This document shows, one piece after another, positions 44,824 through 62,689 of a stretch of 64,000 nt of DNA. A model generated the notes under the pieces. The model was given only the letters and a program-made list of their open reading frames with translations. It was not told the DNA's origin and did no database searches. The stretch is from the NCBI GenBank assembly GCA_964016885.1, contig OZ024743.1:112716001-112780000 (forward strand). Direction: 5' to 3'. Source of the DNA: Eledone cirrhosa. Taxonomy: Eukaryota. Position 1 is the first letter of the stretch, and the number at the start of each line of letters is the position of its first letter. Position numbers and translations under genes: made by a program.

Positions 44824-45080
44824 TGATAGATAGATAGATAGATAGATAAATTTCTATTTATTTGCCACGAGGGCACAAAAGAAGGGGACATTTACACAGT
44901 GGGGGAGTTTACATAAATCGAGTAAAGAAAAAAGGAATAACAATAATAATATAACAATAAAAAGTCCTCAAAAGGGAGGGGGCGTGTTGGGGATTGCACA
45001 TACCCCCGAAAAGTGTGCAACTCTTTTCGCGGGGGAAGCCCAGAGAGGAGGCGCTCCCCCTTTCCTCTTCACTTCTTCAC

Positions 45081-48000
45081 CTACAGAACAATGTAGAGAG
45101 AAGGCCCATTTACACGGGCCATTCTCGCTTCTTTCACCCACCTTTCATAAAACTGTCTGGGACCAAGCACTTCTCTCTCCATCCTGATTCTTCTTCCGAA
45201 GTGGTATCGGAAGAAGTAAACCAGGTGATGGCCGGAGAGAAAGTCACCCGACCTCAGACCTTTCAGGCGCGTCCACCACACAACCTCTTTCATCATGGCT
45301 ATTACGCACAGAAAGACCGCCTCTGCTTCATTTCTGAAGGGAGGAGGCGGCTTGATGTTCACCACAGACTCGGCGGTTAATCGAATCGGCGCCACACGCG
45401 ACAGCAGTCGTTCGACGTAGCCCCACAGATCGGCAACGCCCGGGCAGTGTACCAGTGCATGCGCAACGGTTTCCTCGTCGCGCACGCATCTGGGACAGAT
45501 CTTTTTCGCGGGATCCCTGCCCGGGCGCCCGTGTCTGTAGAGCTTTTCTCGAACGGGCAGAGCCCCCCGGTAACACTGCCAGGCTAGGGACCTCTGGAAG
45601 TTGTCCATGGGTCCCGGGCCGAAAGTTCTACCGAACAGGCTGGCCAGTTCGTCCTCCTCCATGCCTAGCGACTCTCCAAGGGTGTCGTCGCCCCTGCTAG
45701 CCACCAACCCTCTATAGAATGTCGAGGTGGATTCTCCACTGACAGTCGGGTCCGCTTGCCAGATAGCCGTGAGCGCCTGGGCACACTCAGTGTGCCAGTT
45801 GCCCAGTTTTCTCGGTCTTTGCTTCACCCAGGATTGCAGTTCGGTGAGCGAGACGAGCTGTGGGAAGGCTCGCCTCACAAACGGGGCCCACACCGGCTGA
45901 CCGTTGAGGAATACCTGTAGATGCCCTAGCCTCAATGCGTGCCTACGCATCAACAGCCACGGCATACCCAGCCCTCCTTTCGAAGGGTGCTGGCAGCAGA
46001 TGGATCTCCTCACCATGGGAGGCCGCTTCTTCCAGAGGAACTGGAAGAGCATGCGTTCCATGATGGTGAGCTTTTCCTTGGGGCAAGGCACGACGGTCAG
46101 GCGGTAGTAGATGACGGACGCTATGTAAGCGTTCGTCACCTCCGCCCGACCTTTCAGTGATAGTTTGCACTTGGCCCACTTCTGGGTCAGCGCAAACACC
46201 CTGCTCGTCACCTCGCCCCAATTCTTCTCCACCTGGAGGTCCGGTCCGAACCAGACCCCGAGCAGCTTCACCGGGCCCTCCGTCCACCGCCCGACGACAC
46301 CGTCTAACGGCATCGGTTTGCCCCTCCACGTTCCGAGTTGCAAACCGACTGACTTGTCCTGGTTCAGCTTAGCCCCCGTCAGCCTTTCGTATTCCTCCAG
46401 TAGGGTGGCGATCGCCCCGATTTCCGAGGCGTCCGCCACCATTACTGTTACGTCGTCGGCATAGGCCGAGACCGCTTTGTGCAATCCCGGTTCCAGGGGT
46501 ATGCCCCGCAGCAACTCCAACTTCCGCAGCAGTGGCTCGAGAGTCAATACGTACAGAAGGGAGGAGAGGGGGCACCCCTGTCTGATGGATCGGGTGATTT
46601 GAAACGGCTCCGAGAGGTAGCCGTTTACTTTAATCCTAGAGTAGATGTTGCCACTGTGCATGGCAGAAATCCAGCCCCTGAAAACGGGTCCGAAGCCCGC
46701 CGCCGCTAGCACCGCATCCAGGTAACCATGGTCGACCCTATCGAACGCCTTAGATTGATCCAAGTTGATCAGGGCCCCACCAAAGCCGGGTTCGTAGCCA
46801 ACCCTCTCTATGATGTATCGCATGAGGTGGAGGTTGTCGTGAATGGACCTGGACGGGATAGCGCATGTCTGCGCGTCTCCCACCAAACCACCCACCACAA
46901 GCGCCAACCTCTTCGCCAACACCTTGGCCAAAATCTGTAACTCTGCATTCAGCAGAGTTATGGGCCTAAAGTTACTTAAGTCGTCCCCCTTGCTCTCGTC
47001 CTTCCTCACTAGCGTGACCACGCCCTTTGTCACAGAACAGGGAATTCTCCCGTTCTGTTGCCAGTTGCAATAGACAGCCTCGAGGAGTTCGGAGAACAAG
47101 ACCGGCATAGCTAAATAAAGTTCGTATGGTAGACCATCGAGACCCGGGGATTTGCGTCTGCTGCATTGGCTGAGCGCTTCCCCGATTTCAGTGGCTGTGA
47201 TTGGCCCTTCGCAGCACTCCGCTTCGCCGCTCGAAAGACGCGGTAGACCGTCGAGGTATGGACCGAAGTCCACATCCCCGTCCGGCCCCCCGCCACCTCC
47301 GAACAGTCGAGCAAAGTGCCTTTGAAAGGTCTCGCACATTCGCTCAGGTTCAAGGATCACCCGTCCATCCTGGTCTCGCAAAGACCGAATGGTGGATTTA
47401 ATCCCACTCTTGGCTTCTGTCACGCGGGCCCAGCTAACAGCTTTGGTCCCCTCGTTTCCTAAAGCACGTATTTTACTTCGGACAACGCAGCCTTAGTGCT
47501 TCGCGTCAAAGAACTGGCTCAATGCCGTTCTCGTCGCTAACACTCTGGCTACGTCTCCGCTCCTAATCGCCTCTTCTAGTTTATCTGTTGACTCCCTTTC
47601 CCTCCTATTTCTATTCGCCGCTAGTTCCTTACTGTAACCTATCGAACTTACTCTAATCTCTCTCTTTAGAGATATCCACCACCTACTGTTGACGATCGCT
47701 CCCGTCAACCGCATCTTAACTAAGCTACTAATCCGGTTTCTGTAATCTTTCTTTGTCGGTAAGGACAAGTTCATCTTCCAGTAACCGGGACCCTGTCTAT
47801 GCGTTCTATCAAGGTTGACCACGCAGGTCACTAATTTGTGATCTGAATAGCCAACCATGATCAGTTCTGGACAACTAAATACGTCCCTATCCTTACTCCT
47901 AACCAAAAACCTATCTAGGTACGATCTAGATTGTCCACTGCGGTTTGCCCAGGTCCAGGTTGGCGCAGTTGGACAATCTAGTCGAAATCTATCGACCAGG

Positions 48001-48519
48001 TCGAATCGATCGAGTAACCCCTTGAGGCTGCTACACCCCTCTCTATCGGGACATGCCCCTGCATAGTCCCAACGCGCATCTAGGATTCCATTCCAGTCCC
48101 CCACTAAAAGCAGGGAACGCGACGTTCCTAGAAAAGTCTCCAGACGTTGGAAGAAGTCGGCTCTCTCCGCCCCGAAGGGAGCATAAAGACCGACCAGTCT
48201 GAAAGCCCCGCCTTCACCACCTCCGACGTCCAGCACCAGTAATCGACCCCCCGGGTCCGAGTGAACAATCTGTACGTCGAGAGTCAGACGTTTATCCAGC
48301 AGTACGGCAACTCCCCCCCCCGCCTCCGGGTTGACAGAGAGATGCGTGCATCTCAAAGTCATCGAAGGCGGGCGCCAGCTGTCTCACGCTGCTGATCCGA
48401 CTCTCGCAAACAACCATCACATCTATACTTTGTGACCTGAGGTCACTTAGAAGCTTTGCTTGCTTCCAAGCTGAGCTCAGGCCACGCGCGTTCAAACAGC
48501 CAACTCTCAATTGATCTAT
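45081..48519 (-). pseudogene. ORF2 of element B (APE-RT-CCHC); a frameshift near 48310, a stop at 47493, start probably ATG>ATA
   Basis: LRVGCLNARGL, VGDWN, YLDRF, SDHK; 780-aa ORF with LDQSKAFDRV, RQGCPLS, SAYADDVTV and CPRC..HALVHC. Confidence 0.95.
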
Positions 48520-50351
48520 TTTGGTGTTGAAAGTGAAGAAAGAAAAGCACTTACCTCTCCGGGTTGCGTAATTTCCATGGCATCAGGTGTGTTGGGTGGA
48601 GGGATGTTTTGTGGTGGTGTGGGGGTACACGTGTGTGGTGGGGTTGGGGTATTTGGAGTTGTGTCAGGGAGAGGGGCGGTTATGGGGAAATCTTTCAAGA
48701 GGACGCGATTCAACGGTTTTAAACAGGGGGGGCTCACGTCCCGTCTAAATTGTTCTTTTAAGGAACGATAAAGGTCCAGAGGGACCTTTATCATTTTTAA
48801 ATGGGTGAAGTTCTCTGTTGAGATAAAGTTTGGCCCTTCGGTCTGCACCATAGGGTTATTGTTTATTAATTTAACCAGTTTTTTGTTTTCTTTATTTATA
48901 TATGTGTATTGCAACGTCTTTTTTTGTGATGCTGTCAATGTTTCGGAGAGGGGAGGCGCAGATTTATTTTTGTTTGTTGAGGGTGGGGTGTTTTTGATTG
49001 GAGTTGGTGTTTGTGTGTGGGTTATTTGTGGTGTGCTGGGTGTGTGTTTTCTTTTTTTTCTTTTAACTTGTCTGAAGGCTTCTCCTCCTTCTTCTTCAGA
49101 AGTTGGGGGAAACTCTTCAGCGCTAGGTGGGAGGGACGTGTTGTGTGGTTGTTTTTTTTTTGCGGGAGGGGTAGATTTGTTACTGTTTTTTTTATTATTT
49201 GTTTGGAATGGGTTTTGTGGTGGTGGTGGTGGTAATGTTTGTGTCGTGCTTGTGGTTGGTAATGGTGGTGGTGATGTTTGTGTTGTGGTTGGTGGTGGTG
49301 ATTTTTGTGTCGTGCTTGTGTTTGGTGCTGGTGGTGGTGATGTTTGTGTTGTGTTTGTGGTTGGTGGTGTCTGTATTTTGTTTGCTGTGTGTGGTATTAG
49401 TGTATTTTTGGAGGTGGGTGGTGCTGGTGTACTGTTTGTGGTGGGTGTGGGCAATAGTCCTTTTTGGGGGATACGTTTCGGGCAGTTAGCCTTAACGTGT
49501 CCCCTTTCCATGCATAAATAGCATGCTGGTCTTCTCCCCTCTACAATTATGTCTATTGGGGTAAGGTCATCCAGCCAGATGCGATCCGGGATTTGTGCTA
49601 TTCTTTCGGGCCTCATTTGGACTAGTATGTCGAGGCCCATTCCCAGGAACGCATCTCCAGTTGCCTTCCCCATTGACAGCATAGTGTCTTCGCCCATATC
49701 AATGAAGCCAGCAATAGCCCACCAGAAGTCCATTGTGGGCAGCATTGTTTTTACTTTTATTCTTTGTGTTCTTCTACCCATGTAGGAGGGATAGAAGCTA
49801 TATGTTGTCGACGAGAGTGGGCTTAGGGAAAGCTGAACCGCCGTTTCTTTGTCTCTTGTTAGGACCGAAATGCTGCCATAGAGTCGGTCCTTTCGTATGA
49901 AGAGAATATTCTTCATATAGTCTTTTAGGACTAACTCTATTTCCATTTGGCTGGGCTGTGCTGGCTTTCTTGACTGGTTTAGTATAGTTCTGTATATAAC
50001 TGTGTTTTCTGCTCTGGCTTTCTTGAATTCTGGGGGGGAGTTAATGGAAAACATTCCGTTCTCCCCCAAAACAATATGTTTCTTTGCTTCGGCCAGTTTT
50101 TCTCTGGCGGCAGTTAGGTCAATTGGTGTGTATGTAATGGATTGCTTTGTTTTCTGGGCGAAAGTTGCCCTGTCGTTATTTGTATTATTTTCTGTTTGTT
50201 TGTTTTCTGTTTGCTCATTTTCCTTAACATTTGTTTTTTCATTTTGTTTGTTTGTTTCAATGTCTAATTTTGTTGTAATTATTTTTTGTTCTTCAGACTT
50301 GGGGGGCGTGGCAGAGCTAATGGCAGACATGTCTGCCATCTTTTCCGCCAT
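48516..50351 (-). CDS. ORF1 protein of element B (gag-like, CCHC knuckle, Pro/Thr-rich tail), ~611 aa from the first ATG
   Basis: Uninterrupted ORF; IIVEGRRPACYLCMERGHVKANCP; homologous to ORF1 of elements A and C (PSY.G, IP..I.L, VEG.R.C). Confidence 0.88.
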   Translation of the reverse strand: MAEKMADMSAISSATPPKSEEQKIITTKLDIETNKQNEKTNVKENEQTENKQTENNTNNDRATFAQKTKQSITYTPIDLTAAREKLAEAKKHIVLGENGMFSINSPPEFKKARAENTVIYRTILNQSRKPAQPSQMEIELVLKDYMKNILFIRKDRLYGSISVLTRDKETAVQLSLSPLSSTTYSFYPSYMGRRTQRIKVKTMLPTMDFWWAIAGFIDMGEDTMLSMGKATGDAFLGMGLDILVQMRPERIAQIPDRIWLDDLTPIDIIVEGRRPACYLCMERGHVKANCPKRIPQKGLLPTPTTNSTPAPPTSKNTLIPHTANKIQTPPTTNTTQTSPPPAPNTSTTQKSPPPTTTQTSPPPLPTTSTTQTLPPPPPQNPFQTNNKKNSNKSTPPAKKKQPHNTSLPPSAEEFPPTSEEEGGEAFRQVKRKKRKHTPSTPQITHTQTPTPIKNTPPSTNKNKSAPPLSETLTASQKKTLQYTYINKENKKLVKLINNNPMVQTEGPNFISTENFTHLKMIKVPLDLYRSLKEQFRRDVSPPCLKPLNRVLLKDFPITAPLPDTTPNTPTPPHTCTPTPPQNIPPPNTPDAMEITQPGEVSAFLSSLSTPK

Positions 50352-50628
50352 GCTGCCAAGAAAGAAATTTTTCGGCAAAAATAGATATTTATTTTACCCC
50401 CTAAAAAGGGGGTAAATGCAAAAATGTTTCCCTAAATAACAGGGGTTAGTGTTCCAAATGTGTTGCACTAAAAAATTTATCCGGTACTTACAATAGTAAG
50501 GGTAAATCCCGATGGAATAGCGGAGCCGATGCGAAGCGTGTCTTACTCTATCAAGATAGATAGATAGATAGATAGATAGATTGATTGATGGTTTTAATAG
50601 ATAGATAGATTGATAGATAGATAGATAT

Positions 50629-57528: not shown

Positions 57529-58246
57529 GGCACGGAAGTGCTGTCAGACGGATCTGCCCAAGATGCGCACAGAACGACGAGACCGTTCTGCACGCACTTG
57601 TCCAATGTCCGTGCATTACTGAATTGTGGAGTTATGTCGAACAGCTACTGTCGCGTGTGGAACGAATCCGGCTATCGGCCGAGTCCATACTGAAGATCGA
57701 TCCACCGCCTTCCTTAGGTCGGGAAGAGCAGGAAATTTTCCTCTGTCTGGTGGCAGTTGCGAACGAGGTTATACGGTGGACCAGGTTAAAAGGACTGAAG
57801 ACAGACACTTTTCTCTTCGGCCAATCCCTCTTCAACTTCTTCAAGTTTCACCTGGACAGGAAGGTGAGGGTGGAGAGAGAAGTACTGCCCCCCCCCCCCC
57901 CGCAGTACATTTGCTAAAGGGTGGATGAATGTGGCGAGAATGGCTCGTGTGAATGACCATGCGCCTATAGGGTAGCTAACTTGAGGAGAGGTGTGCGTCC
58001 CTGGGTGCCCAAGAAGCGCAGGGTGGTTCAGGATTGGTGAGGTACCCGAGTCACCCCAGGGTCGTCTACCCCCTATCGGGGAATTTATTTTGTTATGTTT
58101 ATGCATAGTTTATTTTATATTTTTATATCTTCATTGTTAAATTAATCTTGCCATTGTGCACTTTTACTCGACCTTATTGTAAACCCCCACTGTCCTTGGC
58201 TTTGTATTGTCCCCTACATGTCGGCCCTTGTGGCTAATGAATGAAA

Positions 58247-58248
<2 letters not shown>
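57529..58248 (+). mobile_element. Tx1 3' fragment (same subfamily as 10665-12118), (ATT)n on both sides
   Basis: RHGSAVRRICPRCAQNDETVLHALVQCP...; its 3' UTR is similar to 11840-12110. Confidence 0.92.
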
Positions 58249-58289
<41 letters not shown>

Positions 58290-58293
58290 TATT

Positions 58294-61200
58294 GGCGACC
58301 TACGTAGGAAATCGTATTATCGTGAGCTCCGCAAAGGTTTGTTGTTTTCAGTTGATTCAAATTACCAGTTATGGAAAATTTGTGTTGTTAAGTGTTTATA
58401 AGTTCACATATATTGCTTTCTGAAAAGGACACAAAAGGATATTGGAGCCTTAAGCCCAAAACTTAAACTTTTTATTTATCAAACAAAATATTTCTTTGAA
58501 AAAAAACATGTACGACAAATTTACTGTTTTTAACAGACCGACACCCCCTCCCCCACCACCACCAACACTAACACCATTGTAAGCCTTGCCACGGATGCAA
58601 ACACTAAATATATAATTACTAGCACTCTGAATTATTTAGATTTGCCACATAAAGACATGGATTTCCCGCCATTATCAACTGCAGGTGTTAAAGCCGCCAC
58701 GCCCACCACCACAATGTCAAAAATAACAACGAAAACCACTGATACCACCACCACCACCACCGCCGCCACCAAAGCGACAACAGAAACCCCAAAAATAAAT
58801 TATTATCTCCTGACATCGAAATGGAATCACCCAGAATCGATTCTTCCACGCCGAACACCACTGACACCACCACCACCTCCACCACAACTGAAACTAAAAA
58901 TAACAATAACTACAACAGCAACAACAACAATGAGAATAACAACAACAACATCAACACCGCCGAAAAACAAAATGTGTCGTTTGCCAAAGCAGCTAACAAA
59001 AGCGAAAAAATAGAGGTAAGCCAGGATGAATTAAATGAAGCCAAGAGAATGGTAAAAAAAGATGGGTACAGGGTCAGCCTCACCCCCACCCCACCCCCTC
59101 ACACACACCTAATAAAATGGAGCCTCGGCGCCTATACACAGTATCTTATCGGACGATAAACACAAAATCACGCCGAGTGGAACGGGCATCCGAGTCTCAA
59201 ATACAAAAGGCTTTGGGACATGTGTGGGCGAAAAAAAACCACATCAGACGTGGGCAGAAATATGGAACCATGGACGTGTTCTTTGGCACACCACAGGAAG
59301 CCAGAGAGCACTCCATGGCCCCATTAAGAAGCGACGATTTCACACTCGTCCCAAGCTATTGTGGCCAGAGACTCGTGAAGATCAGGGTGACCCACGTTCC
59401 ACCGGCCATTGAAATTCCCTGGCTAATGGCTGCCCTCCTCGCCGGCATTGAGGCCAACACGAAAATAATTGAAATAACAAAAGAAAAGCAGGAGAACTGG
59501 TCGGAATCTGGGATGGAGCTCTTGATACAAGCGGACCAAAAAAACATTGAGGAAATTCCAGAGGTGATAGACCTTACTGACGGCAGCCACCTCATCGTAA
59601 TCGTTGAGGGTAGAAGGCGTAGGTGTGTCGTTTGTGGTGAAGGACCCCACCTAAAGGCTTTCTGCTCTCAGGCTAAAAAGTTGAGGCCACCTCTCTTACC
59701 CACCCCAGTAACTCAACCATCAACGCCACCAGCAGCAGAAATGGTAGCAACAACTATAGCAGCAACAACAGAAGCAACTGTAGCAGCAACAACCCCAGCA
59801 ACAGTAGCAAAATCAACACCACCACCACCCAGCGCGCCAGAACTAGCACCAGCGCCTCCACCATCAACCACGCCACAACCAAAACCAACGCCTGTGGAGG
59901 AGTTTCCACTCCCCGACCTATCGCAACTGGAGACAGATTGTAACGACGAGGAGTGGGAAACTGCACCAGGAAAAAGAAAAAAAAAGAAAAAGATACCCAA
60001 AAAAGAAAACATCCTCTTCCTTCCCCCTCCAAAAACACAATACAGGGGGAAACAAATAAACTAACAAACAAAAATGTTAGGACAGCTAAGCCACCATCCA
60101 CACCAGCATCACCAACCTCATCACCACAAACACCAACACCATCACCATCATTAACCCCAACACCACCATCACCAACACCACAAAAGTCACCAAAAAGCGA
60201 AACAGAAATAAACCCACAACAAACGCAAACAAAACAAAACAACCAAAACGATACACATTACACAGCAATAAATTTGAACAACAAGCAGTGAGAAGGATAG
60301 AAAACCATCCTTCCTCTACGGGAAATAAGGTAAGTGGTCTTTCCCATCTTTTCCACTCCTTTTCAACATGACCTCGCTCAGAATAGGCAGCATAAATTCG
60401 CGTCGCTTGGGATCGTTATAGAAGCAGGGCCACCTGCTCAACGACCTCAGGTCACTAAACATAGATGTCGTGGCCATCAGCAAGACCAGAATCTCCGAAG
60501 CACCGGCCTTCGCACCGATCTTCGGCGGCTACGATGTGTACGCATCTCCCAGCCGTCCTGGATCGGGGGGGGGGGGAGTTGCTGTGCTTTTTCGGAGAGG
60601 TTTGGATCTCGTCATACGGGCCATCTTCCTGGACCCAGAAGGTAAGTTGGTGGTGCTGGACGTGACCAGCGGAGACGGGCAAGCTTTCAGGCTAGTGGCC
60701 GTCTATTCCCCGACAGGAGCAGGGCGGCCTGATTTCTTCCGGCGTCTGGAGACCTTTCTTGGAACGTCCCGCTCTTTAGTGTTAGTGGGCGACTGGAACT
60801 GGATCTTAGATGCACGCTGGGACTGTGTGGGAGTAGCAGATAGGGGAGGAGGGTGCAAGAGCCTCACCAACCTGCTCAGGCGTTTTGAACTGTCTGACAG
60901 GTACCGATTGGATTTCCTGAATGTGCCAATGTGGACTTGGACAAACCGCATCCGGTCATCCAAATCATATCTAGATAGAGTATTTTGTAAGGAAATAGAT
61001 AGGTCTAGCATAGGCTGTTCACAATTCAAGATAGTCAGCTACACCGACCACAAATTCGTGATCTATGTGCTTGACTTAGATAGGCTTCATAGACAAGGGC
61101 CCGGCTACTGGAAGCTAAACGCGTCCTTACCAGCGCGCAAGGCCTACATAGACCGGATTAGCGAACTATTTAAGCGGGCGTTGACGGGGGCCATTGTCAA

Positions 61201-62665
61201 AAACAAGTGGTGGATTCCTCTGAAAAGAGCGATTAGAATAGAGTCCATTAGGTTTAGAAAGGCTTTAGCAATAATGAAAAATAGAGCAGAGGGAGAACTA
61301 GTTAGAAAATTAGACGATGCGCTTAGCAAAGGCATCGCGACCGACGTACTTGCGTCGAAATTGGCCCTTCACCAATTCTTCAATGCAAAGGACGAAGGCT
61401 GCGTTGTCAGAGCTAGGGTGGGTGCTCTGAGACACGAGGGAACGAAAGCCGTTCAATGGGCCCGACTGGCGGAAGCACGTCGTGGCAACGAAGCCATGAT
61501 CCGGTCTTTGGTGGACCACGACGGGCGCATGCTACTCGATCCCAGGCAAATGTGTGAAGCTTTTCAGCGACACTTCGCTCAGCTGTTCGGAGGCAGCGGC
61601 GGGCCGGACCGAGGGATAGATTTTAGTGTCTACCTCGACGGACTGCCGCGGCTCTCGGCCACTGAGGCGGAGTGTTGCGAAAAGCCGATAACAGCCGCTG
61701 AAGTACGGGAGGAAATGACTGGCTGCACAAGGGGTAAATCGCCTGATTTGGATGGTCTGCCCTATGAACTTTACGTACAGATGCCAGACTTGTTCAGGGG
61801 CCTCTTGGCGGATGTCTACTGCAACTGGCAACAGAACGGGAGAATTCCCTGCTCTGTGAGCCGAGGAGCGGTGGCGCGGCTGAGAAAGGATCCGCACAAG
61901 GGAGATAACATAGATAATTTCAGGCCCATAACTCTGCTAAACACAGAGTTCAAGATTTGAGCCAAGGTGCTAGCAAAGAAGTTGGCGCTTGTCGTTGGTG
62001 GTCTGGTGGGAGAGGAGCAGACATGCGCCATTCTCGACTCGTGGGTTTATGTCGACTTGTGCTGACTTTGTGGGTTTATGTCGAACACCTGTTATCTCGT
62101 GTAGGACGGATCCAGCGATCAGATGAGTCCATCGTGAGGATTGCTCCGCCCTCTTCCTTTAGCCGGGAAGGGCAGGCAATTTTTATCTGTCTGGTGGCCA
62201 TGGCGAAAGAGATAGTATGGTGGACACGTTTGAAAGGGCTGAAGACGAGCACTTACCTCTTCGGTGATGCCCTGATTAACTTTTTCAAATTTCATTTGAA
62301 AGGAAAATCAGGTTAGAGAGGGAAGTGCTCTCTTCCCAGCATTTTGTTGAAAGATGGGTGAGAGAGGCAAGAATGGCCCGAGTGAATGGGCCTACTCTAA
62401 GTATGTGTCTGTAAATTAAAGGTGGAAAACTGGGAGAGGGCACTTGCCCTGATGGTCAGGTCACTGTGGCCTTTTAATGGGCTTTCTCCACGAATGTCCC
62501 TCGGAAGTCTCCTCCCTATTGGGGATTTTTTCATTGTTATTTTTTGTTACATCCTCTGTTTTTTTTATTTTTTACACGCAGAAATGCCCTTTAGTACCGT
62601 CCTGTATTGTCCTGTACTCTCCTTAATGTCTACTTTATGTAAACCCTTGTGGTTAATAAAGAAAT
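58294..62665 (+). mobile_element. Tx1-clade element C: ORF1 (~58657-60371) and ORF2 from ATG 60368, with a ~1.4-kb internal RT deletion; in (ATT)n
   Basis: ORF1 has CVVCGEGPHLKAFC. ORF2 is nearly collinear with element A to ~62032, then jumps to the equivalent of ~17770. Confidence 0.95.
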
Positions 62666-62689
62666 CATTATTATTATTATTATTATTTC

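Follow-up and report, generated by a model that had tools for sequence, protein, structure and literature searches.

A splice-donor signal conserved where ORF1 meets ORF2 in a large Tx1-like LINE clade of Eledone cirrhosa, and a possible intron spanning ORF2 in one of its families

We analyzed a 64,000-nucleotide (nt) stretch of the Eledone cirrhosa genome (contig OZ024743.1, positions 112,716,001 to 112,780,000; the window) around a full-length Tx1-like long interspersed nuclear element (LINE) with two open reading frames (ORFs). This element, here called element B (44849..50554, minus strand), sits in a (TATC)n microsatellite and belongs to a large LINE clade with a splice-donor signal at the border of ORF1 and ORF2. 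The signal is real, and it is more than chance and more than an accident of one copy. The original prediction, made from element B, was that all of ORF2 lies within an intron and that splicing switches between an ORF1-only mRNA and the full-length template RNA.

In element B, the donor is the 5′ splice-site consensus GAG|GTAAGT (48549..48557, minus strand), placed 12 codons upstream of the ORF1 stop, with the exon ending in CAACCCGGAGAG at 48555 and the intron starting with GTAAGT at 48554. On the acceptor side, the intron ends in CCTTCTCTCTACATTGTTCTGTAG at 45081 and the next exon starts with GTGAAGAAGTGA from 45080; a polypyrimidine tract and the TAG that is also the ORF2 stop (45081..45104, minus strand) make up the putative 3′ splice site, the best-scoring AG of family B. 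The sequence bore out the sites and coordinates of the original prediction, as well as the distance to ORF2 (claimed as ∼35–45 nt, with the ORF2 start position found 35 nt into the intron). Equally confirmed was the 3474-nt, phase-0 interval, a multiple of 3 by its coordinates (45081..48554, minus strand), which contains all of ORF2 and the splicing of which would leave an ORF1 of 602 amino acids ending in QPGEVKK*. One detail needed correcting: The donor is where ORF1 was said to end, but the unspliced frame passes it by 12 codons and reaches a TAG at 48518–48516 (611 amino acids). A pyrimidine-rich tract follows the donor (48525..48548, minus strand), variable in sequence and length across all 17 families defined below, and a purine-rich tract, enhancer-like by its composition and possibly so in function, directly follows the ORF2 stop (45057..45080, minus strand). 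All splice scores come from a crude matrix of our own, based on the metazoan consensus, and not from MaxEntScan. By this matrix, the AG in the spacer of element B, considered as an acceptor for an ORF2-only RNA, scored −3.2 and was rejected.

The clade was marked by a degenerate ORF2-start motif with 13,255 matches in the genome. From 100 motif places listed, we took 60 at full length, chosen for variety, and these fell into 17 families at 90% identity and into 8 groups when the cutoff was 85%. Nucleotide identity between families had a median of 71%; the region upstream of ORF2 was read in all 100 copies. The comparison covers one genome. A site of the form AG|GT(AAGT/AGGT/GAGT/AATT) was present 25–52 nt upstream of the ORF2 start in 17/17 families. 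Among their representatives, A at −2, G at −1, and T at +6 were invariant, position +3 was a purine in all 17, and position +5 was G in 16. Since the donor was picked for each family as the best-scoring site and the scoring required G at +1 and T at +2, we compared it with control windows from the same copies (n = 79): A score of at least 6/7 was reached by 16 of the 17 families at the donor, whereas the controls averaged 0.19 of 17 families and never exceeded 4. The flanks showed a modal identity of 35–88% upstream and 35–82% downstream, dropping directly outside the motif. With all families retaining the site between less similar flanks, the donor is clearly conserved beyond its surroundings. 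No such donor was seen in distant LINEs, mostly only 21–33% alike, from metagenome contigs: Among the 36 of 80 loci with an ORF2 start, none scored 6/7 or higher.

The pattern held for individual copies, 88 of 100 scoring 6 or 7 of 7. The hexamers of the 86 copies with AG|GT were chiefly GTAAGT (52), GTAGGT (26), and GTGAGT (5), all ordinary donor hexamers; the donor was missing in four of the 100 copies through point change, deletion, or truncation, and one subfamily carried CG|GTAAGT instead of AG|GT. The donor was kept in three ORF1 reading frames, with at least three separate frame shifts on the tree (two long branches of which represent deleted copies). Counted from the donor, the ORF1 stop lay at +1, +5, or +36, and splicing would therefore leave ORF1 whole or nearly whole. 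In our judgment, the donor is very likely a U1-type signal in one form or another. Should the whole-ORF2 intron fail, the retention of a U1-type site in three reading frames would still show, as far as sequence comparison can, a donor under selection and a LINE clade selected for recruiting the splicing machinery where ORF1 meets ORF2.

The acceptor is weaker than the donor and plausible rather than established. In family B, the terminal AG of ORF2 ranked first among 261 AGs, and 0 of 300 synonymous permutations reached its score; it ranked 1–3 in 9 of 14 families, the TATC-type ones. The ORF2 stop was TAG in 13 of the 14 aligned families and was preceded by CTG in 13, and the noncoding positions +3 to +24 after the stop had a purine fraction of 0.77–1.00 in all 15 families with the end located. 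In 9 of these 15, the spliced ORF1 would terminate within three codons; the family frames for this count were set by eye, with one family-3 copy (L119) deviating and another copy (L109) having a family-15 3′ end. By their tails, families 1–11 end in TATC-type repeats and families 12–17 in (ATT)n (copies L061–L120), and this split of target classes coincides with that of strong versus weak ORF2-end acceptors.

LINEs require far more ORF1 than ORF2 protein. How a bicistronic RNA yields this excess is not fully understood even in human L1 (PMC11485995; this and the other cited papers, apart from PMC13282606, are drawn on for the parts available to us). In the mechanism that we propose, the ORF1-end donor likely binds the U1 small nuclear ribonucleoprotein, and its likely splice partner in family B is the ORF2-stop AG, the nearest strong one. 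The product would be an mRNA carrying ORF1 alone and ending in the normal 3′ untranslated region (UTR), formed beside the unspliced full-length RNA and possibly contributing to the surplus of ORF1 over ORF2 protein. Retained-intron RNA, being unspliced, would be the only source of ORF2 protein and, by cis preference, the only copied template. That the donor binds U1 and that the whole of ORF2 is an intron yielding an ORF1-only mRNA in family B is quite possible, if short of probable; by the same measure, the whole-ORF2 intron would be the likeliest use of the donor. More tentatively, the arrangement may extend to a clade-wide retained-intron switch, with the entire endonuclease–reverse transcriptase gene as an intron that ends in the gene's own stop codon and with host splicing setting both the ratio of the ORF1 and ORF2 proteins and the copyability of the RNA. 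If true, the switch would achieve the excess by a route other than weak reinitiation, and through it, host control of splicing could silence a clade that is young and very large. The splice-switch idea of the original prediction thus draws partial support from the conserved donor and the strong acceptor of family B, while the tests for junctions and retrocopies came back blank.

Both the acceptor comparison and the searches for a spliced product gave results that weigh against the whole-ORF2 intron. The terminal AG ranked only 7–28 in 5 of the 14 families, all ATT-type, such that acceptor conservation, strong in family B and the TATC families, was weak in this part of the clade. In the other four of the five intact ORF2s, it was no better than the synonymous null (P 0.43–0.74), and there, the acceptor is explained by the protein sequence. 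Of the conserved Leu columns, 29 of 100 were as invariant as the terminal CTG, acceptors within ORF2 showed no depletion, and in 6 of the 15 families with a located end, the spliced ORF1 would acquire a tail of 33–86 codons. Spliced ORF1+3′ UTR retrocopies, proposed earlier as a footprint of the intron, numbered 0 in family B against 450 matches to the unspliced donor and 714 to the unspliced acceptor; they were equally absent from family 5, family 15, and families 9–11, where the joint patterns lacked the unspliced count that served as a positive control in family B. Searches for the donor exon followed by other bases returned only point changes in family B (4/4) and only small deletions in family 15 (7/7). 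Among 20 family-B copies from the match lists, 16 of them chosen for an odd pattern, none was ORF2-less, and the two internal deletions checked in these copies were not at GT-AG. A protein search for spliced ORF1 C-termini gave 0 matches.

The element was found in four sequencing runs of one study, as assembled contigs only and none recorded as RNA; one run, X4, is probably RNA, judging from its size and uneven depth. In X4, one contig spanned the donor (48334–48680) and one the acceptor (44870–45449), both unspliced, and the joint 48555/45080, which the original prediction expected to see in split reads, was not among the 15 of 104 X4 joints listed. We regard the lack of spliced retrocopies as moderate evidence only. 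An ORF2-less RNA must be mobilized in trans, which cis preference makes rare for L1 (PMC5860796), and the lack would also be explained by the unspliced RNA being the only copied template. The blank in X4 is not decisive either because contigs drop minor isoforms and the kind and tissue of the run are unrecorded; read-through from host introns would yield the unspliced cover anyway. As a separate observation, contig depth in X4 was 131 and 337 over ORF1 (48566–49900) versus 13–35 over near-exact ORF2 and 3′ UTR contigs, and in X1–X3, it was flat at ∼2,700–3,900. We left the ORF1 excess in X4 out of the evidence, as contig depth cannot rank the parts of a gene; if real, the ORF1-rich RNA lacks this 3′ UTR.

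The main rival explanation, somewhat doubtful in our judgment, accepts that U1 binds the donor but gives the binding another outcome, either the suppression of premature polyadenylation in the long, intronless RNA or splicing to different acceptors, for example those of host exons downstream, and takes the AG at the end of ORF2 for a by-product of the protein's last residues. The donor is indeed conserved far better than the acceptor, donor-like sites are also found near the 5′ end of several families, and the families searched were without spliced retrocopies, all as this explanation would have it; moreover, the 5′ site of copia elements performs a splicing-independent job (PMC5580714). A role in suppressing polyadenylation fits the presence of AATAAA within ORF1 in 14 of the 17 representatives, but the ORF2 downstream of the donor is without AATAAA in 9 of 17, leaving little to protect. 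A similar G-x-S/T-L motif terminates distant ORF2 proteins, as expected of a by-product, but the family-B acceptor exceeds what the protein sequence demands and the purine tract after the stop recurs in 15/15 families.

Explanations that dispense with U1 fared worse. It is unlikely that the motif is a translation signal, whether an ORF1 stop in a strong context (AGG-TAA/TAG/TGA-G) or a stop–restart or hairpin feeding ORF2: The three commonest hexamers do contain TAA, TAG, and TGA, and 12 of the 17 families use the triplet as their ORF1 stop, but it is out of the ORF1 frame in the other five (8, 12, 13, 14, and 16) with the full motif kept. Families 12, 13, 14, and 16 terminate ORF1 as G-K-stop in a different frame; in B, ORF1 continues through the site. 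The donor often lies in a weak hairpin, but the folding z-scores ranged from −2.7 to +0.7, and a shared hairpin as the explanation of the donor conservation was dropped as no common stem appeared. Least credible of all is the absence of any function, with both sites inherited from one ancestor in a clade too young for decay. The families are related (median 71% nucleotide identity) and their background synonymous conservation is high; nevertheless, the spacer around the motif has diverged in its length (25–52 nt), its sequence, and its frame without loss of the positions that pair with U1, and control windows of equal relatedness reached at most 4/17.

In family B, ORF2 starts without an AUG. 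The start position of element B has ATA (48519–48517), overlapping the ORF1 stop as A-TAG (48516..48519, minus strand), and the same ATA was found in all seven family-B copies compared; among the 100 sampled clade copies, ATA occurred in 11 versus ATG in 80. Some of the ∼700 young family-B copies nevertheless have intact ORF2s. Lineage-specific codon changes, 109 synonymous versus 75 replacement, point to purifying selection on the family-B ORF2, with the first 40 codons (three synonymous versus four replacement) being uninformative. ORF2 may be translated by reinitiation at the AUA or through a −1 frameshift, for which the site would be CCA-AAA-TAG. AUG-independent ORF2 translation has been reported for human L1 (PMC11485995), and family B constitutes a natural test of such expression.

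The family is young: Over a stretch of 301 nt, identity was 100% in all 40 of the copies scored. An ORF1 30-mer (48751–48780) had 675 matches in the genome, and the gap to the 450 matches of the unspliced donor is at least partly due to a sister subfamily with GTAGGT. Against 714 matches at the 3′ end (45067–45098), the ORF1 count indicates that nearly all family-B copies extend to ORF1 and 5′ truncation is thus unusually rare for a LINE. We observed head-to-tail runs of copies ∼5.7–7 kb apart (G000:C2:38732986-38748809 and G000:C1:4225357-4255777), as expected if new copies enter the microsatellite tail of older ones. The closest outside homologues were 38–44% identical, with one at 68%.

Element B is without long terminal repeats (LTRs) and has the separate upstream ORF1, poly(A) signal, and simple-repeat tail of the L1 group. 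Its ORF2 (45081..48519, minus strand) contains an APE endonuclease followed by a reverse transcriptase and a Cys-rich zf-RVT end (Pfam PF03372, PF00078, and PF13966). This copy of ORF2 is broken by a frameshift near a G run (48324–48311) and a stop at 47495–47493, but other family-B copies have it intact at 1145–1146 codons, and the best solved-structure match of the intact protein is human L1 ORF2p (E 1.1e-48, residues 6–856). ORF1 (48516..50351, minus strand; 611 amino acids) has a low-complexity C-terminal half and no match in Pfam; look-alikes in Atlas carry zf-CCHC and RNA-binding families at a score of 0.90–0.92, which is a lead only. The translation contains a CCHC zinc knuckle, CYLCMERGHVKANC (49482..49523, minus strand; C-x2-C-x4-H-x4-C), a feature of the Tx1 clade. 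Together with the target preference, seen in the (TATC)n on both sides of element B and in the TATC-type or ATT tails across the families, this makes the element Tx1-like by its sequence features rather than by a reverse transcriptase tree. The 3′ UTR (44849..45080, minus strand) has AATAAA at 44862–44857 and then the TATC tail, in which lies a 50-nt 3′-end stub of a related family (44786–44736, minus strand).

The 5′ UTR has a donor-like GTAAGT ∼63 nt from its start (50486..50491, minus strand; 5/7 consensus), and no family-B retrocopies with a non-G base at its +1 were found. A hairpin was predicted by eye at 50393..50416 (minus strand), with similar ones in other families, several of which combine it with a donor-like site at the 5′ end. 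In element B, an acceptor-like AG (50367–50353, minus strand) stands immediately upstream of the ORF1 ATG, such that, with the donor-like site, ORF1 is framed like an internal exon.

The window contains two further clade members, elements A and C, both of family 15 and with the donor AAG|GTAAGT placed 38 nt before the ORF2 ATG (14655..14663 and 60327..60335, plus strand). Their ORF2 stop is TAA, and a strong acceptor-like TTTTTTACACGCAG lies ∼160 nt into the 3′ UTR (18279–18288 and 62572–62581, plus strand). Family 17 likewise has an acceptor-like AG ∼160 nt into its 3′ UTR, and in families 15 and 17, this AG scores above the one at the end of ORF2. Element C (58510–62680, plus strand) has a large internal deletion near 62020, and two 5′-truncated clade copies adjoin A and C (11260–12110 and 57530–58250, plus strand). 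Among the ATT repeats after element A, a fragment of another non-LTR element (18390–20290, minus strand) has a GGRGL-type motif, which we take to mark a candidate R4/Dong-like element.

Members of the Tx1 clade preferentially insert into multicopy targets, microsatellites among them, and element B resembles the target-specific Tx1 elements Kibi and Koshi in being a two-ORF APE–reverse transcriptase LINE in microsatellites (PMC4494074). Kibi and Koshi use other repeat units than the (TATC)n and (ATT)n found here, and the available part of that paper mentions no splice signal. Active L1-Tx1 families have been annotated in molluscs in a study whose main text is silent on splicing (PMC13282606), and the open literature, as covered by listings and the beginnings of abstracts and excluding subscription journals and Repbase Reports, yielded no LINE in which a donor at the end of ORF1 is conserved or all of ORF2 forms an intron. 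Half-L1 (HAL1) elements are genomic, nonautonomous families consisting of ORF1 and the 3′ end without ORF2. The spliced RNA proposed here would resemble them, but exact ORF1+3′ UTR copies were not found in the families searched.

Human L1 RNA, too, contains functional splice sites, including a 5′ UTR donor (PMC5860796, PMC2896524), to which the donor-like site in the 5′ UTR of element B may be compared. The human splices, known as SpIREs and SpORF2, start in the 5′ UTR, remove 5′ UTR or ORF1, and leave ORF2 (PMC5860796, PMC2896524), whereas the donor here is at the end of ORF1 and the part removed would be ORF2. SpIREs also leave retrocopies, SpIRE97/622 making up ∼1.8% of full-length L1s (PMC5860796), unlike the putative intron, for which retrocopies lacking its exact extent gave 0 matches in the families searched.

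The closest parallel is the shGAG RNA of the Ty1/copia element EVD of Arabidopsis. In EVD, too, a U1-type 5′ splice site is conserved downstream of the region for the structural protein, and the site has been proposed both to yield an RNA encoding that protein alone and to preserve the full-length RNA (PMC5580714). The analogy with copia drawn in the original prediction holds, with the reservation that the conserved 5′ site of EVD also works without splicing (PMC5580714) and a conserved donor alone is no proof of an intron. As an LTR element, EVD has only one ORF, Gag-Pol, and its short, protease-centered intron is coupled to early termination (PMC5580714). Enrichment on polysomes is a further trait of the copia strategy. 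Element B, known here from sequence, is a two-ORF LINE in which the putative intron would take up all of ORF2 and the normal 3′ end would be kept. It could thus function as the copia shGAG strategy does without belonging to that system, and if true, the clade-wide switch would be for LINEs what the gag splice is for copia.

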